This document shows positions 3,511 through 63,422 of a stretch of 64,000 bases of DNA, in pieces. The position numbers were made by a program, and so were the translations under genes. The DNA is from Candidatus Dojkabacteria bacterium. Lineage in GTDB: Bacteria > Patescibacteriota > Dojkabacteria > JAOAGR01. The stretch lies in assembly GCA_026415655.1 (NCBI GenBank), contig JAOAGR010000004.1:67236-131235 (forward strand), read 5' to 3'. How positions within the stretch are numbered: position 1 is the first letter of the stretch; each line of letters begins with the position of its first letter. A model generated the notes under the pieces. The model did no database searches. It saw only the letters and a list, made by a program, of their open reading frames with translations, and was not told the DNA's origin.

Positions 3511-3527
3511 ATTGGTCTAATCCCGAA

Positions 3528-4034: not shown

Positions 4035-4372
4035 AAATTGTTCTAATTTAATTTTTATTTTAAAAGTCTTGTGATACATTATAAAGATTTTATGCTGTTG
4101 TTAAATTAACTCTTTATATATATTTTGTAAAAGAGATAGTTTTTTTATTGATTTACCCTACACTTATATATATGATTGATTCATTCATAGTTTATATGTT
4201 GTTAATATTTTTGTTAGTTTTTTAAATTGTAGTAGAGGATTTTTTTATATATAAATAAAAAAGTATATATATGTACTAAATTTTTTATTGGGCAAATGAG
4301 TAAGTAAAATTTTTTTAAGTTATAATAAATTTCATAATTTGAAATTCATTATAGTATCATATATATTAAAGA

Positions 4373-43232: not shown

Positions 43233-43366
43233 TTACAGTAAAAGTTTTCATTGCTCTGTGCATTTTATATGTAGTGATCATCTTTCTACGTGGAATGCAC
43301 AGAGAGAGAAGAGCAAGGTCTAAAAGACAGAAAGATGATGAGTGTTAGTTAATAAATAAAAAGATT

Positions 43367-45425: not shown

Positions 45426-46149
45426 AGATACCGGAATCCTCTCACTGTTTTTAAACAGAAGAAACTTTATTCTAACGATTGGAATTGGAGCTTCGTTTCT
45501 AATCTGGACTTCTTCCAGATTCAGCTCCGATACACAAACTATTCTTGAACTTGCTGTAATTTTTTGTTTAGCACCCTTCCTTTTTGATGTTTATGGAAGA
45601 CCAATGCATATATTTATAAAAGATTTCTTTAGATATATTTTTTCCAGAAAACAGAAAAGTATTACAGAAATTATTGAATATGAAGGTAATTATATAAAAA
45701 CAGGAAATTTATCGTTCGCAAAGGTTTACGGGATAGAGCCTGTAAACCTTTCAATGAGCAGTGAGGAAGAGGTAAATGCCTTTAAAAGATATATTCAACA
45801 GTCTCTATTTGCTTTAACTGAACAGATTCAACTCCTTACAATTCAAAGATATTCAGTTGATGATTCTGGTCTTGATATTGAAGAAAAAAGACTCGGGAAA
45901 TTGAAAGGTATTCTCAAGAAAAGATGCAAAGAATATCTGGAAGAGTATTCACTTTTAAGTCACACGATAGAAAGAAGTTTCTACCTGATTATTTCTGCAA
46001 ATTCCAAAAACGAGGTTGATGCAATTAAAAAAATTGACGATCAGGAAAATTCATTTGGAAGGTTATTAGAACAATCAAAGATTAAGCTAACCCCTCTTGA
46101 GTTCCCAGAAGTTAAAGATGTCTCAAGATTTATTTTACAAAGAAAGTAG
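45346..46149 (+). CDS. T4SS-associated membrane protein, possibly VirB3-like or a VirB4 N-terminal domain analogue, immediately upstream of the VirB4-like ATPase.
   Basis: 267 aa with two N-proximal TM helices. Overlaps the upstream gene by up to 80 nt. Its stop lies 2 nt before the ATPase start. Confidence 0.4.
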   Translation: MLEKILIYKYQDQRKKMQEIVPPKLNKDTGILSLFLNRRNFILTIGIGASFLIWTSSRFSSDTQTILELAVIFCLAPFLFDVYGRPMHIFIKDFFRYIFSRKQKSITEIIEYEGNYIKTGNLSFAKVYGIEPVNLSMSSEEEVNAFKRYIQQSLFALTEQIQLLTIQRYSVDDSGLDIEEKRLGKLKGILKKRCKEYLEEYSLLSHTIERSFYLIISANSKNEVDAIKKIDDQENSFGRLLEQSKIKLTPLEFPEVKDVSRFILQRK

Positions 46150-46151
46150 CC

Positions 46152-47984: not shown

Positions 47985-48645
47985 GGAAATAAAACCGAAT
48001 TTAATAGCAGGGTACTTCTTTCTATTTTTAATAATTACTTTTGTCTTTGGAGCTGGATTCCTGATTGAAAGTTATTTTAACGGGAATCTAAATAAATTTT
48101 TTCCAAAAGTAGAAGATCAAATTATTACTCAAAAGATAGAAGGAGAAGTCCAATTTCCTGTTAGTCCAACTGAGATTATTACTGTTACTCCGAGCCCGGA
48201 AGTAACTTCACTACCAACTCTATCAGCTCCCTCTTCTACTCCAATTCCTACAGCAACAGCTCAACCAACATCTGTCCCCACAACGAAGCCCCCTGTTGTC
48301 ATTACTACAACCAAACCTTTACCTACGGAAACTTCAAAGCCTCTTTCTTCTCTTAAATTGAGTTGTTCTATTACAAATACACAGCCAAAAGCAGGTCAAA
48401 ATGTCTCTGTAAATTGTTTTGCAAAAGATCAATCTGGAAATCCAGTTAATAACGTAATTTTGAAGCTTTCTATTGTATGGCAATCTGGCTCGCAAGTATT
48501 AAATATGCCTTCGAGCAATAGTTCTGGCACTTCACAAATTACAATTGTTGTTCCTGAAGGAAATAAGGGCATTGTAACGGCAAACATAACAGCAGAAAAA
48601 GACGGGCTTAAGGTAAATACGAATTTTACTTTAAATATTCAATAA
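47977..48645 (+). CDS. Membrane-anchored protein with a PT-rich linker and a C-terminal Ig-like beta domain. It sits where the VirB8/TcpC-like component is expected.
   Basis: N-terminal TM segment YFFLFLIITFVFGAGFLI. Linker TVTPSPEVTSLPTLSAPSSTPIPTATAQPTSVPTTKPPVVITTTKP. Confidence 0.45.
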   Translation: MPEEIKPNLIAGYFFLFLIITFVFGAGFLIESYFNGNLNKFFPKVEDQIITQKIEGEVQFPVSPTEIITVTPSPEVTSLPTLSAPSSTPIPTATAQPTSVPTTKPPVVITTTKPLPTETSKPLSSLKLSCSITNTQPKAGQNVSVNCFAKDQSGNPVNNVILKLSIVWQSGSQVLNMPSSNSSGTSQITIVVPEGNKGIVTANITAEKDGLKVNTNFTLNIQ

Positions 48646-48650
48646 ATCTT

Positions 48651-49718
48651 ATGGAAGAAAACCAATTATTAAATAAATCAAAAAACCTTGCTTCCAAAGC
48701 TGATGGACTGGCTGGAGATGCTCTTGCTATGGCTTCAAACAAAGTCGCCCCTGTTGCAGGTCCAATTCTGGTTCAACTTCTGTGGAAAAATAAAATAACA
48801 ATTACCTTGGTTATATTATCAATGATACTTTTAATGTGTTTTAGCTTTGAAAGCTTATCACTTCAAGCACTGGCAGGATCAAGAGGTCTGATAGAGCAAA
48901 TTTCTGCGACTCATAAAGAGTGTATTCAGAAAGCTAAAGAAAAACATAATATTGAGTTTGAGCTTTTAGCGTCATATGGGAAAGTAATTTCTGATTTTGA
49001 CGAAAAATATATAGGGACTGGCAAAGGGTTCTTGGAAATAACGGATGCTGATTGGGAAAAGTCATCAACTGATGGTGATGAGGACGGGGAAATTGAGGCA
49101 ACAAGTATCTGCGATAATTATTTTACTCTTGCAAATATTCTGTCTCAAATCCAAGGTGACAGTGAGAAAAAAATAGATGCTTATCCATACCAGAAAAAAG
49201 CGGAAGTTAAGGAATGGTACTTGATATACAAAGGCTTGATAATGATACCTTATGGAAATCCTGTTGGATTAATAAGGTCAGATCTTGTAACCGTTTCTTC
49301 GGGCTATAACGTAGTAAGAATTATTAATGGAAAAGAGAATGTTCATAGAGGTATTGATCTTGTTCCATCCGGAAAGTGGTATGAAGAAAATCCGGGGAAA
49401 ACCTCAAAAGATTCGATAGTAAATTCAATTATTTCGGGAGATCTTTCAAATACAGTTGATGACGCTGGTGCTTTATGTTCTACAGTTACAAATGAACTTT
49501 TTAAAGTTATTAACTGTCATTGTGATTCATTTATTGCTACTGATGGAGCAAAGGTTGTTTATGGATCTCCACTTTGTTTTATGGGAACAACTGGAAACTC
49601 CACAGGCGTGCATGTTCATGTTGAGATCTCTCAAAAGGACGAGAATGGCAAATGGCAGAGGATTGATCCAACTCCTCTTGTATTTCCAGTAAATAATTAT
49701 GCAGGACAAAACCAATGA
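48651..49718 (+). CDS. M23/LytM-family peptidoglycan endopeptidase with an N-terminal membrane anchor. Probably the T4SS cell-wall hydrolase (VirB1-equivalent, PrgK/TcpG-like).
   Basis: M23 motifs HRGIDL and GNSTGVHVHVEI. Confidence 0.75.
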   Translation: MEENQLLNKSKNLASKADGLAGDALAMASNKVAPVAGPILVQLLWKNKITITLVILSMILLMCFSFESLSLQALAGSRGLIEQISATHKECIQKAKEKHNIEFELLASYGKVISDFDEKYIGTGKGFLEITDADWEKSSTDGDEDGEIEATSICDNYFTLANILSQIQGDSEKKIDAYPYQKKAEVKEWYLIYKGLIMIPYGNPVGLIRSDLVTVSSGYNVVRIINGKENVHRGIDLVPSGKWYEENPGKTSKDSIVNSIISGDLSNTVDDAGALCSTVTNELFKVINCHCDSFIATDGAKVVYGSPLCFMGTTGNSTGVHVHVEISQKDENGKWQRIDPTPLVFPVNNYAGQNQ

Positions 49719-50490
49719 AAAAATTAAAATTCTGGATAAGTCTTTGCAACAGGGCTTTTCACAGATTCCAAGACCGGTACTTAAAGCCAAAGGACTTTCC
49801 AGAAATGCAAAATGTCTTTATGGGCTTTTGCTTGATTATGCCTGGCAAAGCGGAAGTTGCTTTCCTGGACAAAAAAGATTGGCAGAAGATCTGGATGTAT
49901 CAGAGCGAAGTATTCAGAGAGATCTTGAAGAACTTCGGGACTTTGGGCTTATCAAGTGGATTAGACGTGGTTATCAAATGACAAATGAATATCAGATTTT
50001 ATCTTTGGATTTTTTACTTCAATCAGATATGTCAAAAACGTCAGATCAAGAGGTGACAGATCTGGCTTCTCAAGAGATGACAGATACGTCGCACAAAGAA
50101 TATAACGTTGAAAATACCCAGAATAAAAATACTCAGTCGTCAACGTTGGAAACGAAAACGAATAATTTAAATCTTTTTGACAAGGAAGCAGTTGAACTTG
50201 CAACAGAATTAAACGATCTCAAAAGCATTCGGTTTTATCAGAAAATAATTAATCAAAGAAATAAAGGGGAAATCGCAATTGAAGATTTTAATACCGCTCT
50301 TGAAGATACACGAAGAGTTAAAAGATGTGATGAAGTCGATGGTACAAACTTTTTAAAAAATCCTGCTGGTTGGTTTGTTTCTGTTTTACAGAAACTCACC
50401 AGACGAAGACAGGACAAACTCCGGCAGGAAGAAGTTAAAACCAAGATGGATGAATTGAAAAATAAGTTTTTAGGAAAAGCAAAACTATGA
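49699..50490 (+). CDS. HTH_36-type winged-helix protein, replication-initiator/DnaD-like, of mobile elements.
   Basis: FSQIPRPVLKAKGLSRNAKCLYGLLLDYAWQSGSCFPGQKRLAEDLDVSERSIQRDLEELRDFGLIKW. Confidence 0.5.
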   Translation: MQDKTNEKIKILDKSLQQGFSQIPRPVLKAKGLSRNAKCLYGLLLDYAWQSGSCFPGQKRLAEDLDVSERSIQRDLEELRDFGLIKWIRRGYQMTNEYQILSLDFLLQSDMSKTSDQEVTDLASQEMTDTSHKEYNVENTQNKNTQSSTLETKTNNLNLFDKEAVELATELNDLKSIRFYQKIINQRNKGEIAIEDFNTALEDTRRVKRCDEVDGTNFLKNPAGWFVSVLQKLTRRRQDKLRQEEVKTKMDELKNKFLGKAKL

Positions 50491-53075
50491 GTCAGGAGTT
50501 AATAGAAAATTTAATAAAGTTTGCATTCATTTCTTTGAGCATAAGTTTAATTTTTACACTAAACTATTTTCGCAAATTATATTTTGCAAAAGTCAGAGCA
50601 AAAAAAGAAAAAGGATTTCTGATACAGATTATTCCACCCAAATACCAACTGGAAGATGCGGATCAAAGAGGAGTGCGTTTTGCTCTACAACGATTTATCG
50701 ATAATTTAACAGCAAGCGTAAAAGATTCCCGAATCTCTTTAGAAATTTTTGCTGATAATTCGGAGATTAACTTTCTGGTATGGACACCTAGTAAAAAGAT
50801 CGCTGAACTGGTTAAGCTTAATTTATACAGTACTTACAATGACCGAATAAAAATTAAGGACGTAGAAACTGATCCAATCAATTCTTTTTCCGTTGATTCT
50901 GTTGTGAACGAATATAAAACCTCCAAGCATGATATTTACATGCTTATGGATCTTAAAGACTTTGAATCTGTAGATCCAGTCCAAGATATTTTGGGAGCAA
51001 TGAGGGGACTTCAAAATGACGATAAGCTTTTATTCCAAATTACAATTAAGCCATCAAAACTTGACGTAATTGCATTACAAAAAGCAAAAGAGAATTTCCG
51101 ACTCCGTAGATCAGAAATAACCTGGCTGGAATTATTCCTGCAAAAAATCAGTTCGTATTTGATTTATTTTGTGCCACTTTTACCAATTTTTATTATAAAA
51201 ATATTTGGTGGAATTCTAGCTTTTTTTAAAGGAGGAAATATAAACCAAGATCCAATCTTTTTGCTTCCTGATAGTGATCCAAGGAAAGTACTTGTTGAGA
51301 AAGAAGAGTTAAGTAACTTTAACAGCCGAATATCAGAAAAATATAAAACTTCATTTTCTACGAATATTAGAGTTATTGCTGAGGGTGAAAGAAAGGACAT
51401 TTTGCTTGATGGATTTGAGCAAGCTCTCGAATCCATGAAATCAGAAACTCAAAACAGACTTATCCGTAAACATAAAAGCAATTCCTTTGATTTGCGAACC
51501 CGGCTTGTTTATCCAGAAGATTCCCTTTTCCCTTTTTACAAAGAACTTTGCACTTCTCAAAATACACTTTACTCAAGGGAAATTTCTATGATCTACCATG
51601 TGCCTTTTAAGATTGATGATCCGGTGATAACAAGCTTTGCCTCTCCTGACCTGCCAGCAAAAAAACTTTTTAAAGATAAAGTTAATATTTCTGATCTTTA
51701 TATTGGAATTAACAAATCCAGAAATATTGAATCAAATGTTTTTTTAAGTGAAGAGAATCGTAAAAGACATATTGTAATAAACGGTCAAACCGGAACAGGA
51801 AAATCCACCATTATGAAAAACTTTGTTTTGCAGGATATTGATGAAAACTTGATTGGACAAAATAAGCGAGGTTTAATGCTGATGGACCCGCATGAAGATT
51901 TCTTTATTGATATTTTAGAAAGACTGCCAGAAACGGAAATGAATTTAGAAAAGTTTATTGCCTGGGATACAACAAGCGAGGAATATTATTTTGGATTTAA
52001 TCCACTTTATGCAGTAGGGCTTACAGAACGGGAAATTGACTTAATTGTTGACTCGAATTTTAAACTGATAGAAAAAGTAATCCGCAGGATTAATCCAGAA
52101 TCAGGAATGGGTATGACCGGAAAGCCAATGCTGATAAATGCCATGAAAACCCTTATGGTTTTTCAAAATGAATGGCTGGAGAAAGTTGGAAATACAGATG
52201 CAAACGTAGAAATTATCAAGAAACATGCACCAACACTTCTTGATGTACGTAGTTTATTTATCAGTGACGAAGAATGCTCGACAATTCTATCTTTTATTCC
52301 ACTGGAAAAATATGAAGGACTCAGGACTTTCTGGGAAGATATTCTGCCCAATTACAAAGAATCACAAAATTGGTCAGAAATCAGACAAGGTTTTGATAAC
52401 AAAATTTCTCAAATTCTTACTGGTATTTTGTTTTTCACATTTGCTCAAAGTCAAAGCTCGATAGAAATATCAGAAATTATTCGGGAGTCAAAAATACTGC
52501 TTGTAAATTTGTCATCTAAAAATATTGGTGAAGAAGGTATGGGACTTCTTGGATCACTTCTTATGTCAAAGGTCTGGTTTGAGGCAAAAAAGATAGAAAA
52601 AAGTAAACGTAATCCATTTGTTGTTTATGCTGATGAATTTCAGAATTTTGCTAACAGTGATTTTGCCAGTGCATTATCTGAAGCAAGAAAATTTAAACTT
52701 GAACTTATACTTGCTCATCAATTCTTTCAGCAACTTCCCGAAGAAGTCTTTCACGCAGTTATGGGTAATGTAAAAACAAAAATTTATTACAGATGTGGAC
52801 TTGAGGATAGCGAAATGATTGCAAAAGAATTGCAGGGAAGACTTCTTCAAAATGAAGTCATGGAGATTCCGGAATTTCATGCAAATATTAAAGTCGGTGA
52901 GGATGTGTTTTCTGTCTATGTCCCTGTGGAAAGGAAACCAACAAAGAGTGAAATTGCAGTCCAAAAAATAGTCGAAGATTCGTATAAAAAATATGGGCGA
53001 ACAAGGCTTTCTGTAGAACAAAATATCATCAATAGAAGGAACTGGTTCAGGGACGGATGTGAGCCATACGGGTAA
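50487..53075 (+). CDS. Type IV coupling protein (VirD4/TraG/TcpA-like ATPase) with an N-terminal membrane region.
   Basis: N-terminal TM helices. Walker A INGQTGTGKSTIMKN. Walker B FVVYADEFQNFAN. 862 aa. Confidence 0.7.
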   Translation: MSQELIENLIKFAFISLSISLIFTLNYFRKLYFAKVRAKKEKGFLIQIIPPKYQLEDADQRGVRFALQRFIDNLTASVKDSRISLEIFADNSEINFLVWTPSKKIAELVKLNLYSTYNDRIKIKDVETDPINSFSVDSVVNEYKTSKHDIYMLMDLKDFESVDPVQDILGAMRGLQNDDKLLFQITIKPSKLDVIALQKAKENFRLRRSEITWLELFLQKISSYLIYFVPLLPIFIIKIFGGILAFFKGGNINQDPIFLLPDSDPRKVLVEKEELSNFNSRISEKYKTSFSTNIRVIAEGERKDILLDGFEQALESMKSETQNRLIRKHKSNSFDLRTRLVYPEDSLFPFYKELCTSQNTLYSREISMIYHVPFKIDDPVITSFASPDLPAKKLFKDKVNISDLYIGINKSRNIESNVFLSEENRKRHIVINGQTGTGKSTIMKNFVLQDIDENLIGQNKRGLMLMDPHEDFFIDILERLPETEMNLEKFIAWDTTSEEYYFGFNPLYAVGLTEREIDLIVDSNFKLIEKVIRRINPESGMGMTGKPMLINAMKTLMVFQNEWLEKVGNTDANVEIIKKHAPTLLDVRSLFISDEECSTILSFIPLEKYEGLRTFWEDILPNYKESQNWSEIRQGFDNKISQILTGILFFTFAQSQSSIEISEIIRESKILLVNLSSKNIGEEGMGLLGSLLMSKVWFEAKKIEKSKRNPFVVYADEFQNFANSDFASALSEARKFKLELILAHQFFQQLPEEVFHAVMGNVKTKIYYRCGLEDSEMIAKELQGRLLQNEVMEIPEFHANIKVGEDVFSVYVPVERKPTKSEIAVQKIVEDSYKKYGRTRLSVEQNIINRRNWFRDGCEPYG

Positions 53076-53113
53076 TTATTGTACTAGAACAGTTATCCAG
53101 TAAATAGCTCTTA

Positions 53114-53289
53114 AAAAACTTAACCTCTTATCTTATTTTTCTCATCCCCTTGCGATCCCTGCTCTCGTCATTTTGTGAGTGGGTGGACTTTCACGAAAGC
53201 CCACCCACTCACTTCCTCGACCATGGATTTGATGTGTATATTTAACACATACAAACGGGGGATGAGATATGGGGGGAGGTTAAGTTTTT
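53114..53289. repeat. Nested inverted repeats in the T4CP/Replic_Relax intergenic region, an oriT candidate. Outer pair AAAAACTTAACCTC / GAGGTTAAGTTTTT. Middle pair TCTCATCCCC / GGGGATGAGA. Core 38-nt GC-rich hairpin GTGAGTGGGTGG-A-CTTTC-AC-GAAAG-C-CCACCCACTCAC at 53175..53212.
   Basis: Read directly. The core hairpin is not followed by a T-tract, so it is not a canonical terminator. GC-rich in an AT-rich context. Confidence 0.5.
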
Positions 53290-53307
53290 AGGGTAATTAA
53301 TATAAAT

Positions 53308-54192
53308 ATGAAAAAAATAAGATTAAATAAAAATCAGATAGAGGTATTAAAAATTATTCAGAGTTTTAGGTATATTCCAATGAAGGTATTGATGAAGATT
53401 GTATTTGAGAGGGAAGTTTATGGGCATTTATCGGGACTGAGTAGAGGACTTCATAGATTGGAATATTCTGGATTAATAAAAAGTTTTTTATACGGTAATA
53501 ATTGGAAAGTAGTTTTTATCACGAAAAAAGGAGCAGAAAGCTTAGCTCTGGAATCAGGAATTCCAATTAAAGATATTTCCATTCCAAATCTAAGCCACAA
53601 AGTAGGTTTTGCCACTCTTGAGCATACAGTAAAAATAGCCAACCTTTATCTCGAACTCGCAATGGAAATACCCGCATTTCCAGATTTCTCACTAATAGAA
53701 TGGCTAGGAGATCAACAGGTATTTTTGCAGTACAAATTCCGTTCAGTAAGAAATGGAAAAACAATAAAAAGAAATCTGGCACCGGATTCTTTTTTCCTGC
53801 TTCAAAAGGATGGAGTCAATAAACCTTACTTTCTTGAATACGATACCGGTACTATGGACAGGGAACAGCTTGTACAAAAATTCCTGCGGTACTTTGAATA
53901 CTTTGTTTACGGGGAGTGGAGAGAAAAGTTCGGGACTTTTCCTTCAATTCTTTTCTTGACGGAAAGAAAAGAACAATCAATGCAAAAGTATTTGCAGGAG
54001 CCGGAAATTCCTTTGGAAAAAGCTCTTGCTCTAAGATCCAAATTTTCTGACTCCTCAAATATTGTCTGGAAGGCAATAGGCATGTCAGAAAATATTAAAA
54101 GCATAAATTCCAAAGAAATTTATGACTTTTTAAAAACTCAAATTATTTTTAATTATACAAATCAATCATGGACAAAAGAATTATTAAAATAA
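53308..54192 (+). CDS. Replic_Relax (replication-relaxation) family-like protein with an N-terminal winged helix. Candidate ICE relaxase or mobilisation protein.
   Basis: LNKNQIEVLKIIQSFRYIPMKVLMKIVFEREVYGHLSGLSRGLHRLEYSGLIKSF. Size and N-terminal wHTH are consistent with PF13814. Assignment from memory only. Confidence 0.45.
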   Translation: MKKIRLNKNQIEVLKIIQSFRYIPMKVLMKIVFEREVYGHLSGLSRGLHRLEYSGLIKSFLYGNNWKVVFITKKGAESLALESGIPIKDISIPNLSHKVGFATLEHTVKIANLYLELAMEIPAFPDFSLIEWLGDQQVFLQYKFRSVRNGKTIKRNLAPDSFFLLQKDGVNKPYFLEYDTGTMDREQLVQKFLRYFEYFVYGEWREKFGTFPSILFLTERKEQSMQKYLQEPEIPLEKALALRSKFSDSSNIVWKAIGMSENIKSINSKEIYDFLKTQIIFNYTNQSWTKELLK

Positions 54193-54743
54193 TATTTGCT
54201 CTGATCTCATGTATCTTTATCGTGATTGGAGTTTATTTAGCTTACAACGTTTTTTACCCTGAGATTTATTATCAGAAAAACCTTAAAAACAACATTACAC
54301 CTCCCCCCATTACAGAAAGCGAATCACCAAGCTCAGTATCTACCCCAGCCCTGGATCAGGAAAATATTCCTGATCGATTGATAATTCCCAAAATAGGTGT
54401 GGATATGGAGTTAGGAACTGATCCAAAGACATTAGATAAAGCAGGGTGGGTGCAAAACCTCTATCCTGATAATTCTGTAATGGTTATTGCAGCCCACAGG
54501 TTCGGCTGGATAGGCATGCCTAATGACCGGAAAGTAACTCATACTCTTTATAATATTAATAAGCTGGTAATTGGGGATGAGGTGATTATCCAATGGAATG
54601 GAGAGAGGAAGATTTATAAGATTAAAGATATAACTGAGGCTACAAATAACCCTTCTATAAAAGACGGTGAGGTTTTGATTTATACTTGTAAGTCTTTAGA
54701 TTCGGAATTAAGAATCTTTTTAAATTTAGAATATGTATTATAA
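54168..54743 (+). CDS. Sortase (N-terminal TM anchor; catalytic His, Cys and Arg region).
   Basis: LIIPKIGVD, VIAAHR (His), and LIYTCKS (TLxTC-type Cys). 191 aa. Confidence 0.7.
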   Translation: MDKRIIKIIFALISCIFIVIGVYLAYNVFYPEIYYQKNLKNNITPPPITESESPSSVSTPALDQENIPDRLIIPKIGVDMELGTDPKTLDKAGWVQNLYPDNSVMVIAAHRFGWIGMPNDRKVTHTLYNINKLVIGDEVIIQWNGERKIYKIKDITEATNNPSIKDGEVLIYTCKSLDSELRIFLNLEYVL

Positions 54744-54901
54744 GTTGAAATATTCATGCTCCATTTTCCTTTAAGGTCAATGCAGAAAAGTGCATTATAA
54801 TCTGTTATTCTGGAGTATTTTTTGCTGAAATAGATTATACAAAATGAATCTAAAGAGACAGCTGTGTTATATAAATGTACAATAAATAGAGGTATAACCA
54901 G

Positions 54902-57070
54902 ATGCAACGAGAACAGTCAAATCATGCAAATCATCACGGGGTTATGCATGAAGAAAATAAAAGTGATAGTCACAGTAATCATGGACATCAAAACCACGCT
55001 ATGAAGTCTATTGAAGACATGTCATTGCTGGAAAAAGTAAAGATGAGTATGAGCATGACCATGGGGATGGATCATACAGGGCTTGCAGGCAGAGAGATGG
55101 CAAGACTTATGGAACTTGATATTAGAAATAAATTTTTCTTTTCACTCATATTCACAGTTCCGATATTCTTATACACCATGGGCGAGATGATTTTCGGGAT
55201 TATGATGCCTGAATTCATGCCAAAATCATGGCTTTTATTTTTACTAACTACTCCAGTATTTTTTTATGGTGGGTGGTTGTTTTTATACTCAGCTTTTCAT
55301 TCATTGAGATCACGAAAGCTTGATATGTCTGTACTTATTGCCGTTGGTATTGTTGCTGCATATGTATTTAGCGTAGTTTTGACTTTTATCGGTTCGGAAG
55401 AAACATATTATGAAGCAGCTGCAATGCTAATTACATTTGTACTTTTTGGGCATTGGATGGAGATGAAATCAAGACGCGGTACTACTGATGCGTTGCAGGC
55501 TTTATTCGCTTTAGTTCCAGATCAAGCCAGAATTGATCGAGATGGAAAAGAAACTATCGTTGCAACCGATGAGGTAAAGTTAAATGACATCATAATTTTA
55601 AAACCTGGTGATAAAGTCCCTGTTGATGGAGTCGTGACTGAAGGTGAGACATCTATTGATGAATCTCTAATCACTGGCGAATCAATCCCTGTAACAAAAA
55701 AAGTGGAAGACCGAGTAGTGGCAGGATCAATCAATCAGACCGGTTCAATTAGATTTAAAGCAACTCAAGTCGGTCAAGATACTGTTTTAGCAAATATTGT
55801 TAAGTTGGTTGAAACCGCACAGAATTCAAAAGCACCGGGTCAAAGAATTGCGGATAAATTTGCTGGTTATCTAGTAGTGTTAGCAGTAGGCAGCGGATTA
55901 CTAACATTTGCTGTTTGGTACTTTCTCGCAGGTGAGCCAGTTCTTTTTGCACTGACATTTGCCATATCAGCAGTAGTTATCGCTTGCCCTGACGCTCTCG
56001 GTCTTGCAACTCCAACAGCGGTTGCTGTAGGTACAGGGATTGGTGCTAAACATAATATTTTAATTAAGGATGCACCTACTTTAGAACAGGTTTCTAAAAT
56101 TAAGGCAGTTGTTTTAGATAAAACTGGAACATTGACAGAAGGAAAGCCTAAAGTTGTGAGGGTTCAAACAGTTGAAGGCTTTTCTGACGCTGAAGCTATA
56201 AGAATTACGGCAATCGCAGAGCAAGGTTCTTCACATCCATTGAGCAAATCAGTACTAGATTATGCTGATGCAAATAATATTGCAATTAATTCTAAAGCCC
56301 AAAACTTTAAGAATTTGGCGGGTTTAGGTATTGAAGCACAAGTTGACGGTAAGAACATACTCGTTGGTACTAAAAAATTGATGAAGCAAAGAGATATTAA
56401 TATTGATGCTTTGGATTCGGTTATAAAAGATGCACTAGCTGGAGGAGAAACTATTATGATTCTCGCAATAGATAATAGTGTTAAAGCAGTAATTGGAGCG
56501 GCAGATCCAATCAAAGAGACCGCAAAAACTGCTATTTCAAGGCTCAATTCTATCGGAATCGAAACAATTATGATAACAGGAGACAATGAACGTACTGCTG
56601 AGATTGTATCGAAGAATTTAGGTATAAGTCGTTATTTCGCTGAAGTTATGCCGGAAGACAAAGCAGTATTTGTTAAGAAGCTTCAGGATGAAGGTAAGTT
56701 TGTTGCAATGGTTGGTGATGGAGTGAATGATGCTCCTGCTCTTGCTCAGGCAAATATTGGAATTGCAATTGGTGCAGGTACAGATGTGGCTGTAGAAACC
56801 GCGAAAGTCGTACTTATGAAGTCAGATCCAGAGGATATCTCAAGAGCAATTATACTTAGCAAAGCAACTGTACGTAAAATGAAGCAGAATCTTTTTTGGG
56901 CCTCCATTTATAACATTCTTGCAATCCCAATTGCAGCAGGTGCTTTATATCCTAGTTTTGGTATATCACTAAGACCTGAAGTTTCTGCATTACTGATGAG
57001 TGTATCATCAATAATTGTTGCACTAAATGCTGTTTCTTTAAGATTTGTATCTGCAAAGTTAAAGTCATAA
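54902..57070 (+). CDS. P1B-type heavy-metal-translocating ATPase with a His/Met-rich N-terminus and a non-canonical CPD transmembrane motif.
   Basis: TGES, DKTGTLT, and GDGVNDAPAL motifs. IACPDALGLATP in place of CPC. N-terminal HANHHGVMHEE..HSNHGHQNH..MSMSMTMGMDH. Confidence 0.85.
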   Translation: MQREQSNHANHHGVMHEENKSDSHSNHGHQNHAMKSIEDMSLLEKVKMSMSMTMGMDHTGLAGREMARLMELDIRNKFFFSLIFTVPIFLYTMGEMIFGIMMPEFMPKSWLLFLLTTPVFFYGGWLFLYSAFHSLRSRKLDMSVLIAVGIVAAYVFSVVLTFIGSEETYYEAAAMLITFVLFGHWMEMKSRRGTTDALQALFALVPDQARIDRDGKETIVATDEVKLNDIIILKPGDKVPVDGVVTEGETSIDESLITGESIPVTKKVEDRVVAGSINQTGSIRFKATQVGQDTVLANIVKLVETAQNSKAPGQRIADKFAGYLVVLAVGSGLLTFAVWYFLAGEPVLFALTFAISAVVIACPDALGLATPTAVAVGTGIGAKHNILIKDAPTLEQVSKIKAVVLDKTGTLTEGKPKVVRVQTVEGFSDAEAIRITAIAEQGSSHPLSKSVLDYADANNIAINSKAQNFKNLAGLGIEAQVDGKNILVGTKKLMKQRDINIDALDSVIKDALAGGETIMILAIDNSVKAVIGAADPIKETAKTAISRLNSIGIETIMITGDNERTAEIVSKNLGISRYFAEVMPEDKAVFVKKLQDEGKFVAMVGDGVNDAPALAQANIGIAIGAGTDVAVETAKVVLMKSDPEDISRAIILSKATVRKMKQNLFWASIYNILAIPIAAGALYPSFGISLRPEVSALLMSVSSIIVALNAVSLRFVSAKLKS

Positions 57071-57121: not shown

Positions 57122-57165
57122 TTGATTTGTAGTAGTTTCGTGATATAATTGTATAACGTGTACGT
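57122..57165 (+). promoter_or_regulatory. Promoter TTGATT-16-TGaTATAAT followed by the operator-like near-palindrome TAACGTGTACGT (ACGTGTACGT) upstream of the cupredoxin-like gene.
   Basis: -35 at 57122-57127, extended -10 at 57141-57149, and motif at 57154-57165. The same 12-mer in the opposite orientation occurs upstream of copZ at 58013-58024. Confidence 0.4.
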
Positions 57166-57188
57166 CCCATATAGGTATTTAAATTATA

Positions 57189-57668
57189 ATGTCTAAAAAA
57201 AATAAAAAAAAAAGTATTAGTGAGCAGATAGAATCCTCTGCAAACTTAAGATCTGATGATTCTGGAGCCGCAAAAATATTTTTTATTGTATGTGCTGTGT
57301 TATTAGTTGTTTTAATTGGTGGAATGTTTGTATTTATGGGAGGCGGAAGTAGTGATGATGGTTCAGTACAAGGTACTCAGACAGCTTCAGTAGATGAAAG
57401 TGGTAAACAGGTAATTAATATAACTGCAAAAGGTGGATACAAGCCAGGTGTTGTAACTGCTAAAGCAGGACAACCGTCACTTTTAAAAATCAAAACAAAT
57501 AATTCTTTTGACTGTTCAAGAGCATTTATGATTCCTGACCTCAAAATTAGCAGAAATTTACCCCCAACCGGCGAAACTGTAATTGAAATACCTGCTCAAG
57601 AAGCAGGAAAAGAACTAGAAGGCACATGTAGTATGGGAATGTATTCGTTTAAAATGAAATTCGTTTAA
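57189..57668 (+). CDS. Membrane-anchored cupredoxin-like/Met-rich putative copper-binding protein.
   Basis: TM anchor, then GGYKPGVVTAKAGQPSLLKIKTNN...C...GTCSMGMY. Located in a cop context. Confidence 0.45.
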   Translation: MSKKNKKKSISEQIESSANLRSDDSGAAKIFFIVCAVLLVVLIGGMFVFMGGGSSDDGSVQGTQTASVDESGKQVINITAKGGYKPGVVTAKAGQPSLLKIKTNNSFDCSRAFMIPDLKISRNLPPTGETVIEIPAQEAGKELEGTCSMGMYSFKMKFV

Positions 57669-57673
57669 TATTA

Positions 57674-57946
57674 ATGATGAAACACAAAGAATCCAGTCAA
57701 AAAGAAAAATCAATCCTTGCATCTAAAAAAGCTGCAGGTACAGTAAAGAAAATTATAGAAATGCTTGAAGAAGATCGGTATTGCATTGATATTATTCAAC
57801 AGATTGATGGAGCCATCGGGCTCTTAAAAAGTGCAAGAAATCAAATCCTAGATGATCATTTTGATCATTGTTTGCTTGAAAAAATTCAAGAAGATAAGGA
57901 AAAAACTTTGGATGAACTAAAAAAGGTTTATAGAATAAGTAACTAA
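57674..57946 (+). CDS. csoR: CsoR/RcnR/FrmR-family metal-sensing transcriptional repressor (Cu-type C-H-C ligands).
   Basis: EDRYCIDIIQQIDGAIGLLKSARNQILDDHFDHCL. The conserved Cys, His and Cys align with CsoR. Confidence 0.8.
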   Translation: MMKHKESSQKEKSILASKKAAGTVKKIIEMLEEDRYCIDIIQQIDGAIGLLKSARNQILDDHFDHCLLEKIQEDKEKTLDELKKVYRISN

Positions 57947-57957
57947 TGTGAATTGTT

Positions 57958-57990
57958 AAGTCAACGAAATTAAGGCGTTGACTTTTTTTA
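57958..57990 (+). terminator. Rho-independent terminator after csoR: a 9-bp perfect stem AAGTCAACG / CGTTGACTT, a 9-nt loop, and a T7 tract.
   Basis: Read directly: aagtcaacgaaattaaggcgttgacttttttt. Confidence 0.7.
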
Positions 57991-58024
57991 GATATGTTAT
58001 AACATATACCCCACGTACACGTTA
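57978..58024 (+). promoter_or_regulatory. TTGACT -35 hexamer (inside the terminator's descending stem) and the operator-like motif ACGTACACGTTA upstream of copZ.
   Basis: TTGACT at 57978-57983. The 12-mer at 58013-58024 is identical to the reverse complement of 57154-57165. Confidence 0.35.
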
Positions 58025-58036
58025 GATCAAAAACAT

Positions 58037-58264
58037 ATGAATAATTACAAAATACAAATCAAAGGAATGCATTGCAACGGATGCAAAAATTTAATTCAAA
58101 TGTCGCTGGAGGATGAGAGTCTGCAGAATGTTTCTGTAAATCCAGAGACAGGATATGCGAACTTTAATACCGATTTATCAGAGGAAGATACCGCAAAAGT
58201 ATTAGAAAAGGTATTTGCAGAACTTTCTGACTATTCTTATTCAAATTTAGAAAAGGTGGATTAA
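58037..58264 (+). CDS. copZ: HMA-domain copper chaperone CopZ-like.
   Basis: The GMHCNGC (MxCxxC) motif in a 75-aa protein. Confidence 0.8.
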   Translation: MNNYKIQIKGMHCNGCKNLIQMSLEDESLQNVSVNPETGYANFNTDLSEEDTAKVLEKVFAELSDYSYSNLEKVD

Positions 58265-58271
58265 AACAAAT

Positions 58272-59330
58272 ATGTCAAAATTATTAACAATATCAATTGC
58301 CACTGTCACTTTTATAACAGGTGTCGGACTTGGCTATATAATTACCCCTCAGTATGCAATGTCTAATACAGAGAGTGCTGCTATGGTAGGAGACTTTGGA
58401 AAGGCAGATAAATATGTCGACCAAAGGTTTATCAATGCAATGATAAAACACCACTTAGGATCGATTGACATGGCTAAACAAGCTCAAACAAACTCTAGCA
58501 GAGATGAAATTAAGTCCATGGCTAATGACATCATTACTGTTCAACAAAAAGAAGTAGATCAGTTATATCAATGGAAAAAGGATTGGTATAACGATACTTC
58601 AAAAGTTAAACAAGGCGAAAAAGTAAACTTAGGGTCTGCTGGCGATAAATTTGATCTTAGATTTATTAATGCAATGATTGCACACCACTCTGATGCAGTG
58701 ATGATGGCTCAGGATATCCAAAAGAAATCAACTAGAGATGAGGTTCTCCAGCTTGCTGACGAAATCATTACAGCTAAGTCAGGTGAAATAAAAGCAATGG
58801 AGGACTGGAGATGGGCTTGGTATAACATTTCAACAACCACTTCAATGAATGATGGTAGCGGAATGTTAGGAACTGCTGATGAAAGATTTGATCTAAGATA
58901 CATTAACGAAATGATTTCTCATCATCAAGGTGCAATAGCACTAGCAAGACAGGTAGAAAAAACCTCACATCGGAAAGAAATTCGGGATCTCGCAACTATG
59001 ATTATAAAAGAAGAACCTAAGTCTATTGAGGAGTTATATGCATGGAAGAAGGCTTGGTATAACGATACAACAAAGGTTGCAGAACCAAAGGTGGCAAACT
59101 TAGGATCGTATGATGAAAAACTTGATTTAAGATTCCTGAACGCACTAATTGCTCATCATGATGCAGGAATTATGATGACAAAAGAAGCTAGACTAAAAAG
59201 TGCTAGAAATGAAGTTTTAAATAATGCGGATAGCACAGAAATGTTCTTTGTGACAACAAAGAAAACTTTTGAACAGTGGCGATCAGAATGGTACTTAACA
59301 CCAACATCTACACCTGCACAGCAGATGTAA
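58272..59330 (+). CDS. Secreted DUF305-family protein with four DUF305 repeats (tandem duplication). Associated with copper resistance.
   Basis: Four repeats of D.RF(I/L)N.MI.HH..A..MA: DQRFINAMIKHH, DLRFINAMIAHH, DLRYINEMISHH, and DLRFLNALIAHH. Has a signal peptide. Confidence 0.75.
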   Translation: MSKLLTISIATVTFITGVGLGYIITPQYAMSNTESAAMVGDFGKADKYVDQRFINAMIKHHLGSIDMAKQAQTNSSRDEIKSMANDIITVQQKEVDQLYQWKKDWYNDTSKVKQGEKVNLGSAGDKFDLRFINAMIAHHSDAVMMAQDIQKKSTRDEVLQLADEIITAKSGEIKAMEDWRWAWYNISTTTSMNDGSGMLGTADERFDLRYINEMISHHQGAIALARQVEKTSHRKEIRDLATMIIKEEPKSIEELYAWKKAWYNDTTKVAEPKVANLGSYDEKLDLRFLNALIAHHDAGIMMTKEARLKSARNEVLNNADSTEMFFVTTKKTFEQWRSEWYLTPTSTPAQQM

Positions 59331-59354
59331 TTTTAATTCTAAGCATATAAACAC

Positions 59355-61700
59355 ATGGAAAACATAACAATACCAGTAAAAGGAATGCATTGCGCGAGCT
59401 GTGCTACAACAATAAAAAAAGTTTTAGAGAAAGTTGGAGGTGTAGGTAAGTGTGATGTGAACATCGCGACAGAAAAAGCAAATATAGAATATGATAGAAA
59501 TCAAGTAAGTTTAGAAACATTATCTAATAAACTGACACCTTTTGGTTATTCACTTGCTATCCCTGCCTCCTCAACGCCTGCACTAAGCACAAAAGCAGTA
59601 GAAAGCCATCAAATGGCTGATGGAACTTTAATGACTGCCAATGAGCATGCTGAGCACTTAGGAACAAATCAAAGCAAAGAGGAAAAACTTGCTGAACTTC
59701 AAGAGCAGAAAGAAAAAGTTGATTTTGTAATGCCGATAACGGTATTTACATTTGTAACAATGATGTGGGAAATTCTTGCGAAAACATTTGATTGGTTTCC
59801 TAGATATTTCATTCCAATGGAGTTAAATAATATTATTGTATTTGCTCTAGCATCAATAGTCATGTTTTGGATCGGTAAGCCGTTTATAGACGGTGTAGGA
59901 AGATTCATAAAGCATCGGATTGCAAATATGGATACATTGATAGGTATAGGAACTTTAACAGCGTACTTCTACAGTTCTGTTGTCGTTCTAATGCCGCAAG
60001 TTAAAGCGTTTATGGGGCTTCCTGAAACTACTTACTTTGATGTAACAATCGTAGTAATAGGATTTATTATTTTAGGAAAGTACCTAGAAGCGAGGTCAAA
60101 GTTAAGAACAGGAGAAGCAATTGAGAAGTTGGTGAACTTGCAGGCAAAAACAGCACTTGTTGAAAGGGATGGAAAAGAAATAGAAGTGCCTATAGATCAA
60201 GTTGTTCTTGGAGACTTGATTATTGTTAAGCCTGGCACGAAAATTCCTGTAGATGCAGAAATAGTTGAAGGAAAGTCGTCTATTGATGAGTCAATGGTTA
60301 CTGGAGAACCTATTCCAGTTGATAAACAAAGCGGTGACTCTGTAATTGGAGGTACAATCAATAAACAAGGTGTATTAAAGATTAAGGCAATAAAAGTTGG
60401 CTCTGAAACACTTCTTGCTCACATTATTAAAATGGTAGAGAACGCTCAAGGATCGAAAGCACCAATCCAGAGACTTGCTGATTCAATTTCAGGGGTATTT
60501 GTTCCAATTGTTCTGGTAATTGCAATATTAACACTGATTTTATGGATTGTATTAGGTCCGCAATTTCTAGGATTAGAACTATCTGAAGCGATTTCTCTTG
60601 GACTATTATGTTTTGTCGGAATACTTGTTATTGCATGTCCTTGTGCACTTGGTCTTGCAACGCCTACAGCAATAATTGTTGGAGTCGGTAAAGGTGCTTC
60701 AAATGGAATTTTGATTAAAAATGCAGAAAGCCTTGAAAAACTACATAAAGTAAAAGTTGTTGTAGTGGATAAAACAGGAACAATTACAAAGGGGCAGCCT
60801 GAAGTTACTGATGTTATCTCAACAACTCACTTAACTGAAGAAAAAGTATTGTCTTTAGTCGGTTCACTGGAAAAAAACTCCGAACACCCACTGGCTATAG
60901 CTATCATGGATAAGGTTAAGGCTTCAGGAGTTGAACTTTCATCTGTTGATGATTTTGAAATTATCGAAGGAAAAGGTTTGAAAGGAAGCATTCACGGAGA
61001 AGAGATATATGCTGGAAACTTGAAACTACTTGCGGATCTGAATCTTCCTTTTGATCGATCAAGAATTGATACATTAGCAAGTCAAGGAAAAACACCCGTT
61101 GTTCTTACAACAAGAAGTGAAGTGCTCGCGATTATTGCAATTGCGGATACTATAAAACCAGAAGCAATCGAATCAGTAAAAGCACTTCATAAGCTAGGAG
61201 TAAAAGTAGCCATGCTTACAGGTGATAATAAAAATACAGCTCGATATATTGCAGATCAGGTCGGAATTGATGAGGTTTTTGCAGAAGTCTTACCTTCTGA
61301 AAAGGCTGATAAGGTTATTGAATTACAGAAAAAAGGTCTGGTTGTTGCTATGGCTGGCGACGGTGTAAACGATGCTCCCGCTCTTGCTCAGGCAGATGTA
61401 GGCGTAGCAATGGGAACAGGTACGGATGTAGCAATTGAATCAGCAGATATCACTCTTCTTCATGGAGACATATCAAAATTAGCAAAAGCAATAAAGCTTT
61501 CTAAAAAAACAATGCGAACTATTAAGCAGAATTTGTTCTGGGCATTTATTTACAATGTAGTAGGCATTCCACTTGCTGCAGGTATATTCTACCCATTCTT
61601 TGGACTGCTGCTAAACCCAATATTTGCAGGGCTTGCAATGGCATTCTCTTCAGTATCGGTTGTCACAAACTCACTTAGATTAAAAACTGCCAAAATATGA
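59355..61700 (+). CDS. copA: Copper-exporting P1B-1 ATPase CopA with an N-terminal HMA domain.
   Basis: GMHCASC, TGEP, IACPCALGLATP, DKTGTIT, and GDGVNDAPALA. Confidence 0.9.
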   Translation: MENITIPVKGMHCASCATTIKKVLEKVGGVGKCDVNIATEKANIEYDRNQVSLETLSNKLTPFGYSLAIPASSTPALSTKAVESHQMADGTLMTANEHAEHLGTNQSKEEKLAELQEQKEKVDFVMPITVFTFVTMMWEILAKTFDWFPRYFIPMELNNIIVFALASIVMFWIGKPFIDGVGRFIKHRIANMDTLIGIGTLTAYFYSSVVVLMPQVKAFMGLPETTYFDVTIVVIGFIILGKYLEARSKLRTGEAIEKLVNLQAKTALVERDGKEIEVPIDQVVLGDLIIVKPGTKIPVDAEIVEGKSSIDESMVTGEPIPVDKQSGDSVIGGTINKQGVLKIKAIKVGSETLLAHIIKMVENAQGSKAPIQRLADSISGVFVPIVLVIAILTLILWIVLGPQFLGLELSEAISLGLLCFVGILVIACPCALGLATPTAIIVGVGKGASNGILIKNAESLEKLHKVKVVVVDKTGTITKGQPEVTDVISTTHLTEEKVLSLVGSLEKNSEHPLAIAIMDKVKASGVELSSVDDFEIIEGKGLKGSIHGEEIYAGNLKLLADLNLPFDRSRIDTLASQGKTPVVLTTRSEVLAIIAIADTIKPEAIESVKALHKLGVKVAMLTGDNKNTARYIADQVGIDEVFAEVLPSEKADKVIELQKKGLVVAMAGDGVNDAPALAQADVGVAMGTGTDVAIESADITLLHGDISKLAKAIKLSKKTMRTIKQNLFWAFIYNVVGIPLAAGIFYPFFGLLLNPIFAGLAMAFSSVSVVTNSLRLKTAKI

Positions 61701-62323
61701 AAAAAGTTATTATACCAATATTATTAGTTACAGCTGGAGTACTTTTAAGTCTTGTTGCAACTACAACATTACGTTTTGTTACTTTGAAGGAGGAAGAAAA
61801 TACTCATTATCACGCCGATTTTATGATCCACATTAATGGAGAGATGATGATGTTGGATGACCCAGAGTATTATAAAGAAGAAGTCCCAGCTCCATGTTCG
61901 ACTGGCGAACATACTTCTGATCCTCTAGAGAGAGCACATTTGCATGATAGAGTCCCTTCTGTTGTTCATGTAGAGGATGAGGCAGTCACATGGGGACACT
62001 TCTTTCAAAACCTTGGTTATACTGTATCAAAAGATATTTTGATTACTCCGGAAGGAGATATTTATAAACTCGAAGGAGAAAAGAGGCTTCGATTTATATT
62101 AAATGGAAAAGAGGAAAGCATTATTTCTGGAAGGGTGATTCAAAACAAAGATCGCTTACTAGTAAGTTATGGTGAAGAAACAGGTCAAGAACTAATTGAT
62201 GGTAAATACAATGAGGTTACTGAGAGAGCAGAAGAGTATAACAATACTCCTGATCCAGAAGGTTGCTCTGGATCAAAAGTAGAATCATTTACAGATAAGT
62301 TGAAGAGGGCATTTATAAATTAA
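61697..62323 (+). CDS. His-rich secreted or anchored protein, a putative metal-binding accessory protein. Translationally coupled to copA (ATGA overlap).
   Basis: N-terminal TM segment. HYHADFMIHINGEMMMLDD...HTSDPLERAHLHDRVPSVVHVEDE...WGHFF. Confidence 0.45.
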   Translation: MKKVIIPILLVTAGVLLSLVATTTLRFVTLKEEENTHYHADFMIHINGEMMMLDDPEYYKEEVPAPCSTGEHTSDPLERAHLHDRVPSVVHVEDEAVTWGHFFQNLGYTVSKDILITPEGDIYKLEGEKRLRFILNGKEESIISGRVIQNKDRLLVSYGEETGQELIDGKYNEVTERAEEYNNTPDPEGCSGSKVESFTDKLKRAFIN

Positions 62324-62324
62324 T

Positions 62325-62570
62325 ATGGAAGCACAAATTAAAAAATCAAACTCTTGCATCTTGCATGTAAATGGAATGCACTGTGCAGCATGTGAGCTTG
62401 TTATAGAAAAGAAGTTGAAGAGAGTGAAAGGCGTGACTTTTGTAGACGCTAAACTTACTTCTCAAACTGTTGAAGTAAAAGGAGAGCTAGAAGGCTCTCC
62501 TGAAGAATTAGCCGAGGAGTTCACAAAGCTTGTTGAAACAGATGGATATACAATTACTGTTGAAAAGTAA
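62325..62570 (+). CDS. copZ: Second HMA-domain metallochaperone.
   Basis: The NGMHCAACELV (MxCxxC) motif in an 81-aa protein. Confidence 0.8.
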   Translation: MEAQIKKSNSCILHVNGMHCAACELVIEKKLKRVKGVTFVDAKLTSQTVEVKGELEGSPEELAEEFTKLVETDGYTITVEK

Positions 62571-62573
62571 AAT

Positions 62574-63422
62574 GTGAAGAAAAAAATAAATTGGTCAGAG
62601 TTTATTTATGCTGGACCGATTGCACTAATCATTATCATCTTATTTGTACTATTACAAAAAACAGGTGTTGTAGATTTTGTAAATGTAGATTCAGTTAATC
62701 TTCCTGCTGTCTTCTTAATTGGCTTGGTAGCGTCAATATCGTCATGCGCTGCTGTTGTAGGAGGACTTGCATTATCAATTTCGTCCTCTTTTTCAATGGC
62801 AGGTAAAAAAGTGGGTACTGTATCTAGTATTTCGTTCCATTTAGGGAGACTTCTCGGTTTTTTTGTTTTGGGTGGGATTATTGGATGGCTTGGATCACTT
62901 TTCACTTTAGAGGGTGATTCCAGTAGATATTGGAGTATTGGTACCAGTTTATTTACAGGGGTTATTTTACTTACTCTAGCATTAGGGCTTATATTTTCTT
63001 CTGACTTCTTTAAGAAGTTTACTCCAAAGTTACCAAAAAGCGTCTCAAATAAACTATTAAAAGTACAGGATGTTAATGTCGATTCTTCAAGTGCAAAAAC
63101 TCCAATTCTTGCAATGATAATCCCGGCACTTGCAGGAGTAATTACTTTCTTCCTTCCATGTGGATTTACTCAAAGCATGCAAATGTTCTCACTTGGTACA
63201 GGTAGCTTTATCAATGGTGCCTTAACTATGTTTGTATTCTCTTTAGGAACATTGCCAGTGTTAGCAATGCTTAGTTTTGCCTCTATCAAACTATCAGAAG
63301 AATCTAAGTATTCTGGAATATTCTTCAAAACAGCAGGTTTGCTAGTTTTGTTCTTTGCTATTCTTAATTTAAGCGGAGCTTTAACAGTGATGGGAATTAT
63401 AGATCCACTATTTACTTTTTAA
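62574..63422 (+). CDS. Polytopic membrane protein with two conserved membrane Cys, DsbD_2/UreH/CcdA-like. This type often follows HMA chaperone genes.
   Basis: SSCAAVVGG and FFLPCGFTQSMQMFSLGTG in separate TM helices. Six to seven hydrophobic segments. Confidence 0.45.
   Translation: MKKKINWSEFIYAGPIALIIIILFVLLQKTGVVDFVNVDSVNLPAVFLIGLVASISSCAAVVGGLALSISSSFSMAGKKVGTVSSISFHLGRLLGFFVLGGIIGWLGSLFTLEGDSSRYWSIGTSLFTGVILLTLALGLIFSSDFFKKFTPKLPKSVSNKLLKVQDVNVDSSSAKTPILAMIIPALAGVITFFLPCGFTQSMQMFSLGTGSFINGALTMFVFSLGTLPVLAMLSFASIKLSEESKYSGIFFKTAGLLVLFFAILNLSGALTVMGIIDPLFTF

Follow-up and report, generated by a model that had tools for sequence, protein, structure and literature searches.

Two copies of a 12-mer at copper-module promoters of a Dojkabacteria genome are probably the shared arm of two 25-bp CsoR operators

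The 12-mer ACGTACACGTTA is present twice in the stretch of 64,000 nucleotides of Dojkabacteria DNA that was analysed here (the window), at 58013-58024 on the plus strand and, as the exact reverse complement, at 57154-57165 on the minus strand. Each copy probably marks the same variant arm in one of two 25-bp operators, S1 and S2, of the repressor CsoR. The sequence-only reading had proposed the 12-mer itself as a candidate CsoR operator. CsoR operator DNA is very probably present at both promoters, but the 12-mer represents only one arm and one base of the adjacent spacer. Since the 12-mer would thus be a part of CsoR operators, we regard the system as a copper-resistance switch of the ordinary kind, whose DNA site has changed in this lineage. 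Beyond this change it is a conventional CsoR-controlled copper-efflux module, and the regulation departs little from what is known.

The predicted functions of the module genes (cupredoxin, CsoR-type repressor of family PF02583, HMA-type CopZ, DUF305 protein, and P1B ATPase) were upheld by domain matches. The first P1B ATPase of the module (54902-57070) is without an HMA domain. Promoter P1 (57122-57149, plus strand), a consensus prediction, consists of TTGATT, a 16-nt spacer, and the extended -10 element TG-n-TATAAT, and it was found where it had been described, just upstream of the first 12-mer copy with a gap of 4 nt. The first gene of the P1 operon encodes a cupredoxin-like membrane-anchored protein (57189-57668, plus strand; PF13473, E=1e-11), and the next is csoR (57674-57946, plus strand; 90 aa). 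Downstream of csoR lies an intrinsic terminator (57958-57990, plus strand) with a 9-bp stem (57958-57966 and 57976-57984) and a subsequent T-run, which has a folding energy of -10.1 kcal/mol (z = -2.96) and is predicted to separate the cupredoxin-csoR transcript from the copZ transcript. Its 3' half provides the -35 element of promoter P2 (57978-58005, plus strand), which is likewise a consensus prediction and comprises TTGACT, a 16-nt spacer, and TAACAT. A terminator of the same design (-11.5 kcal/mol) is present in the related locus L165. The P2 operon (58037-63422, plus strand) encodes the CopZ-like HMA protein (copZ, 58037-58264), a triple-DUF305 protein (58272-59330), the P1B ATPase CopA (59355-61700), an uncharacterised protein of 208 aa (61697-62323), a further protein of the HMA type (62325-62570), and a membrane protein of the DsbD_2 type (62574-63422). 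The genes of this operon overlap or are separated by tiny gaps. Conjugation genes adjoin the copper module, which suggests a mobile, recently rearranged context.

The CsoR of the window matches the family PF02583 (Trns_repr_metal) with E=5.9e-18 and 65.5 bits (cut-off 22.8), and the closest sequences with solved structures are the CsoRs of Geobacillus (4M1P), Streptomyces (4ADZ), and Mycobacterium tuberculosis (2HH7). The x-Cys-His-Cys ligand set of CsoR is represented by Cys36, His61, and Cys65 in M. tuberculosis. In the window protein C37, H62, and C66 align with YCIDI and H-x3-C of the Geobacillus and Streptomyces CsoRs, and together with Y36 and E81 they are invariant among 13 relatives. 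Cys37, His62, and Cys66 are proposed to be the Cu(I) ligands, and judged by these residues the ligand set is of the Cu(I) type and not of the RcnR or CstR pattern. The neighbourhood is that of a copper regulator: csoR adjoins copZ/copA-type efflux genes, and the same synteny is found in five related loci (L162, L163, L165, L169, and L171). Besides the window's own protein, a search for CsoR homologues yielded one relative, which is 51% identical (P0002, locus L001), and scans of species-representative genomes and metagenomes yielded relatives with identities of 31-52%. CsoR relatives much above about 50% identity were found neither in the homologue search nor in the species-representative genomes or the metagenomes.

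The occurrence of the 12-mer and its exact inverse at two copper-module promoters was confirmed. When up to one mismatch was allowed, the whole 64-kb window contained two matches (0.07 expected), and these are the two copies at the cupredoxin-csoR and the copZ-DUF305-copA-...-DsbD promoters. The looser pattern ACGT-NN-ACGT was found at the same two places only. The G+C content of the window is 32%, and exact inverted 12-mers are common in it, with 77 pairs of at least 12 nt within 1.5 kb. Random or shuffled segments of the sizes of these two intergenic regions shared a 12-mer in about 0.5% of the trials, and a repeat finder extended the pair to 23 nt with 78% complementarity; only one inverted repeat of the window is longer. 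The bare observation of the 12-mer is thus of moderate statistical weight. An avoidance or enrichment of ACGT or GTAC as restriction sites was rejected, because both tetramers have observed/expected ratios of about 1. The proposed internal symmetry of the core ACGT-AC-ACGT did not hold: its reverse complement is ACGT-GT-ACGT, hence the core is no true palindrome, and the dyad lies beside the 12-mer. Weak similarity between the two sites runs past the operators into the flanks (T-run, AGAyAT, TTATAA).

Comparison with related loci points to a larger site. Relatives of CopA with identities of 62-73% are encoded on contigs with the same module, i.e., cupredoxin, csoR, copZ, DUF305, copA, and HMA/DsbD genes. 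The five syntenic modules named above were compared, while L164 and L166-L168, with DNA covered that does not include csoR, were uninformative. The gene order of the P2 operon is repeated in L162, L163, L165, and L169, and a cupredoxin gene precedes csoR also in L163 and L165. The CsoRs of the syntenic modules are 47-51% identical to the window CsoR and form one subgroup with it, characterised by the shared motif QQ[IV]D..IGLLKS..H.DHC and by the lack of a 4-residue insertion. Their operators precede csoR or lie between this gene and copZ, the same promoter positions as in the window, and read ATACCTATACC-ATA-GGTATAGGTAT in L165, TAACCTATACC-TAT-GGTATAGGTTT in L171 (from another Dojkabacteria MAG), TAACCTATACC-AGA-GGTTGGGGTAT in L163, CAACCTATACC-ATG-GGTGGAGGTTG in L162, and TAACC-N9-GGTTA in L169. 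These operators result in the subgroup consensus TAACCTATACC-NNN-GGTATAGGTTA. In the clade layout TAACC-T-ATACC-NNN-GGTAT-A-GGTTA a 3-bp spacer is flanked on either side by a pair of half-sites 6 bp apart, which gives four half-sites in all. The closest low-G+C CPR-like contigs carry the 25-bp palindrome ATACC-T-ATACC-NNN-GGTAT-A-GGTAT just upstream of csoR, and distant CsoR relatives in alphaproteobacteria and actinobacteria have the classic ATACCCC-N-GGGGTAT just upstream of the gene. The promoter layout of L171 (TTGACT-17-TAACCT) is like that of P2: the outer half-site TAACCT doubles as the -10 element, and the -10 hexamer of P2 is the outer half-site of S2.

None of the 171 related loci contains the exact 12-mer, and in these loci (about 1.05 Mb) no ACGT-NN-ACGT was found at a promoter. 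The 161 loci of the CsoR search contain 12 matches to this pattern, all of them apparently coding as judged from the sequence context and not from gene calls. The suggestion that the 12-mer might be conserved upstream of csoR/copA orthologues thus failed, as it is missing upstream of csoR, copZ, and copA in every related locus examined, but the 25-bp operator is conserved in related loci when it is compared in the same way.

When S1 and S2 are placed in the 25-bp frame, the 12-mer resolves into one spacer base and the right arm. S2 (58000-58024) is TAACATATACC-CCA-CGTACACGTTA, reads TAACaTATACC-cca-cGTAcAcGTTA, and overlaps the -10 element of P2 and the expected +1, and its 12-mer copy is composed of the last spacer base and the variant arm CGTACACGTTA (58014-58024). 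S1 (57154-57178) is TAACGTGTACG-TCC-CATATAGGTAT, with the reverse complement ATACCTATAtg-gga-cGTAcAcGTTA. It starts 4 nt past the -10 element of P1 and spans the expected +1, and its 12-mer copy is composed of the variant arm (57154-57164) and the first spacer base. The opposite arms are near-canonical. That of S1 (57168-57178; the minus strand reads ATACCTATATG) agrees with ATACCTATACC at 9/11 positions, and that of S2, TAACATATACC, reaches 10/11; for each position and strand, P is 3.6e-4 and 4.7e-5, respectively. The S1 arm may coincide in part with a weak Shine-Dalgarno sequence (AGGT). In both sites the near-canonical arm sits beside the 12-mer at the identical 3-bp spacing. It had been stated that the motif differs from the TACCC..GGGTA boxes of other bacteria. 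This is correct insofar as the site deviates from the classic boxes, but a TACC(CC) half-site directly adjoins the 12-mer at both sites.

The register of the operators was first recognised by eye and tested afterwards, and the subgroup consensus used for scoring was taken from L171, L163, and L162, without the window. S2 agrees with this consensus at 18/22 positions, more than any other 25-mer of the window, and one of 200 shuffles reached 18. S1 agrees at 15/22 positions, a value shared by five positions in the window, or at 17/22 when W is allowed at the ends (three positions), so that it ranks 2-5 among about 64,000 positions. With a broader consensus of the ATACC type, S1 shared the top score among about 64,000 positions, and S2 was tied third. 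In a MAFFT alignment S1, S2, and the operators of four relatives align without gaps, the columns AC.TATA......GT....GT are invariant, and the -35 motifs TTGAC of S2, L171, and L165 fall into the same columns. The layout of the two sites, their positions relative to the predicted promoters, and their homology to the operators of the relatives were thus observed directly. As a palindrome S2 is better preserved (8/11 pairs) than S1, which is a poor one (6/11).

A strict position weight matrix built from 27-31 boxes of relatives gave a different result, with scores of about -5 to +10 for S1 and S2 versus 24-42 for the training sites. S1 and S2 were each at or below the maximum of the shuffles, and all three copper-module promoter sites ranked between 4th and 21st in the window. 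The low scores arise because half-sites that are invariantly ACC in the relatives read ACG in the window arm. Taken by itself, the strict matrix would have led to a rejection of the operator model, but the numbers of matches to the consensus, the test of single arms, and the MAFFT alignment indicate that the operators are diverged, not absent. The third of the promoter sites, ATAAATGTACA-ATA-AATAGAGGTAT at 54871-54895, might with low confidence be a further, weak CsoR box. Its sequence overlaps both the -10-like hexamer TACAAT and GAGGT, the ribosome-binding site of the first P1B ATPase. It agrees with the ATACC type of the consensus at 15/22 positions, a tie for the best score in the window, and with the TAACC type at 11/22, and it ranks 10-21 with the matrix.

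Half-sites were tabulated by anchoring on the four AC/GT dinucleotides alone and leaving the next base free; a count of hybrid ACC/ACG patterns over all loci had been uninformative due to the GC-rich background and was replaced by this tabulation. In 30 operators of relatives, 120/120 half-sites are ACC. The shared arm of the window contains TAACG and GTACG, and thus ACG in both tandem half-sites and at both promoters. The half-sites of S2 are AACa, TACC, TACg, and AACg, those of S1 are TACC, TATg, TACg, and AACg, and only one of four in each operator is a fully canonical (T/A)ACC. The arm, cGTAcAcGTTA, has CG where all relatives have GG, and with the exchange of ACC for ACG the anchors GTA and GTT are kept and the G-tract is lost. 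Given the 120/120 conservation, CsoR need not bind the ACG arm. It is conceivable, albeit doubtful, that the CsoR of this Dojkabacteria lineage has a shifted or relaxed specificity at this clade-invariant position and that the operators are deliberately hybrid, with one ancestral and one new arm.

Among the closest known operators are those of type 2, which have been described for Streptomyces lividans, Bacillus subtilis, Staphylococcus aureus, and Listeria (ATATACCCCTNAGGGGTATAT; PMC3902906). In the classic form TAC and GTA are inverted trinucleotides 9 bp apart (TAC-X9-GTA, the "GTA dyad") that flank two short G/C tracts. For the Streptomyces CsoR it has been reported that the TAC/GTA trinucleotides are essential anchors, that the G/C tracts differ between species and act via DNA shape, that a half-site does not bind, that two tetramers occupy one operator, and that Cu(I) abolishes DNA binding (Tan et al., 2014; PMC3902906). 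The window sites resemble type 2 operators in their AT-rich ends, the TAC/GTA anchors, and a C-tract beside TAC (TACCCC in S2), as well as in the overlap with the predicted csoR and copZ-copA promoters and the Cys-His-Cys CsoR encoded alongside. They differ in that they are 25 bp long with four half-sites, that the TAC-to-GTA spacings are X5, X11, and X17 instead of X9, and that only one side has a G/C tract; the whole arm CGTACACGTTA is without a G-tract. The similarity to the 25-bp box of CPR/Chloroflexi-like genomes (e.g., L165, L171, L163, L101, L091) comprises length, register, spacer, the outer TAAC/GTTA, the gene neighbourhood, and the promoter placement including the -10 element formed by an outer half-site. 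However, all half-sites of that box are ACC, whereas each window site has a single canonical one, and the ACG-ACG arm occurs in no relative. The RcnR of Escherichia coli belongs to the same protein superfamily and, as summarised in PMC3902906 from Iwig and Chivers (2009), also has several closely spaced sites at TAC-like inverted repeats, namely tandem type 1 sites TACT-G6-N-AGTA. According to that summary it differs by a single long G-tract per site and 1:1 binding, and its sensor site is of the Ni/Co type (His-Cys-His-His), in contrast to the Cys-His-Cys of the window CsoR. In the literature examined, no study of CsoR operators in Patescibacteria was found, and a 2024 review of metallostasis and a paper on metagenomic CsoR regulons contain no operator detail beyond that of Tan et al.

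Several other explanations of the two 12-mers were weighed against the operator model, which gains support from the membership of the window CsoR in the same subgroup as the owners of the 25-bp boxes, while the small number of sites (just two) and the lack of a close CsoR relative were counted against it. The 12-mer with its core could be a complete, non-canonical CsoR operator to which the flanking TACC/GGTAT sequences are irrelevant. It is the only stretch with 12/12 identity between the promoters and sits at or near +1 of both, and the remainder of the 25-bp sites differs between S1 and S2. Nevertheless, this explanation is improbable: no CsoR site is nearly as short as 12 bp, a duplex with one half-site is not bound whereas two tetramers cover about two helical turns (Tan et al., PMC3902906), and the core lacks true dyad symmetry. 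In addition, near-canonical arms at the same distance from both copies are very unlikely to arise by chance, relatives have a canonical arm exactly at the place of the 12-mer, and the 12-mer itself is found at no related promoter. A little less improbable, but still unlikely, is a purely historical origin of the identity of the arms by gene conversion, by inverted duplication of one arm, or in decaying sites, so that the ACG arm would add little and CsoR would hold mainly the canonical arm or regulate weakly. The universal ACC of the relatives, which would make the ACG arm a poor site, the similarity in the flanks, and the context suggested by the conjugation genes would fit such a history. 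However, the exact operator register and the promoter position have been kept in both copies, both tandem half-sites show the same change from ACC to ACG, and the GTA anchor is retained. Moreover, the identity ends at the arm boundary, and it would be expected to extend further after a simple, recent duplication of the entire operator.

It is highly improbable that the inverted 12-mers serve to invert the cupredoxin-csoR segment by recombination or that they mediate RNA pairing between the two 5' leaders, even though they are exact inverted repeats bounding a segment of 847 bp and the leader RNAs would be complementary over 12 nt. No recombinase was found among 20 neighbouring proteins that were scanned, and inverted pairs of this length are abundant in the window. 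With respect to an RNA element, neither a match to an Rfam family nor a structured leader was found (z = +1.9 and +0.8), and a terminator lies between the two transcripts. Under the operator model, the inverted orientation needs no additional assumption. The "cop box" of CopY (TACAnnTGTA) and sites of the MerR and ArsR types were rejected by eye, because their sequences do not fit and the module contains no such regulator.

Under the operator model, apo-CsoR would bind across the -10/+1 regions of P1 and P2, probably with two tetramers per operator, and would block access of RNA polymerase. Binding of Cu(I) at Cys37/His62/Cys66 would release the repressor and thereby derepress the cupredoxin-csoR operon, including csoR itself by autoregulation, and the efflux/chaperone operon from copZ to DsbD_2. 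For the binding, the stoichiometry, and the copper response, we infer these steps from established CsoR biochemistry.

The analysis also exemplifies that a motif common to two promoters can be a mere part of the real site. If the operators are indeed hybrid, a repressor-operator pair could have been caught midway in co-evolution, or else the affinity may be tuned such that the loading of the two tetramers is asymmetric and each operon responds at a copper level of its own. No CsoR-DNA co-structure was found among the PDB sequence matches or in the literature examined, and natural variants are therefore useful probes of which bases are read directly and which via DNA shape. The comparison has revealed a 25-bp CsoR box with four half-sites across many CPR/Chloroflexi-like genomes, of which the window represents a natural variant at an otherwise invariant position. 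The window sites offer a first, concrete model of how an operator may govern copper regulation in a CPR bacterium; hardly any transcription factor sites have been characterised in this group.

The 25-bp CsoR box ATACC-T-ATACC-NNN-GGTAT-A-GGTAT was found at about 30 CPR/Chloroflexi-like csoR loci, e.g., at 1138-1162 of L001, at 4806-4830 of L165, which is a syntenic copper module, and at 1484-1508 of L171, the syntenic module of another Dojkabacteria MAG. Further related loci that carry the box are L084, L089-L091, L098, L101-L106, L112, and L121. The trinucleotide ACC is present in 120 of 120 half-sites at these approximately 30 loci. Read from its sequence, the box amounts to a pair of interdigitated TACC-N9-GGTA units that are offset by 6 bp. 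This offset would place the two units on roughly opposite faces of the DNA, an arrangement that would fit the known stoichiometry of two tetramers. No description of such an interdigitated csoR box was found in the literature searched.

A weak 25-bp box-like sequence, ATAAATGTACA-ATA-AATAGAGGTAT, is also located upstream of the first P1B ATPase gene of the copper module (window 54871-54895), where it overlaps the ribosome-binding site of this gene. It is the joint best match in the window to the ATACC-type consensus, and a poor match to the TAACC-type consensus. The hairpin that terminates the gene preceding the copZ operon carries, in its 3' stem, the TTGACT -35 box from which the copZ promoter is built (window 57958-57990). 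The same design is used in L165 (4766-4797).

The encoded proteins have features of their own. The first P1B ATPase (window 54902-57070) has a His/Met-rich N-terminus and is devoid of an HMA domain, and its transmembrane metal motif is CPD (..VVIACPDALGLATP..), in contrast to the usual CPC, which is also present in the CopA of the window, or CPH. The DUF305 protein of the module (window 58272-59330) has a length of 352 aa and contains three DUF305 repeats, as does the protein encoded at 446-1504 of the related locus L164, while single-domain versions of 184-200 aa are encoded in the syntenic modules L162, L163, L165, and L169.

Immediately 5' of the copper module lies a conjugation/type IV secretion cluster (window 40113-54743), which encodes a T4SS pilin, a VirB6/TrbL-like protein, a TraG/VirB4-like ATPase, a coupling-protein-like NTPase, an HTH_36 protein, and a Replic_Relax protein. 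The copper genes may be the cargo of a conjugative element in this Dojkabacteria genome. A sortase and a DUF11 surface protein of 1039 aa are additionally encoded in this region. The Replic_Relax gene is preceded, at a distance of about 100 bp, by a near-perfect palindrome (window 53175-53212; 18-nt arms, 94% complementary, 2-nt centre), a candidate terminator or origin-of-transfer-like hairpin. In the whole window GGCC is strongly under-represented (16 observed versus 43.7 expected under a second-order model), which may reflect restriction-site avoidance, and the remaining 4-bp palindromes are close to their expected counts.

Not all related copper modules carry csoR. The syntenic cop modules L166-L168 (1-677) lack csoR in the DNA covered and have a Peptidase_M56 (BlaR-like) gene upstream instead, while in L165 a Penicillinase_R/M56 pair (2837-4202) is present alongside csoR. 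These arrangements suggest that regulators of the CopY/BlaI type and CsoR have been swapped or layered in the copper modules of related CPR bacteria.
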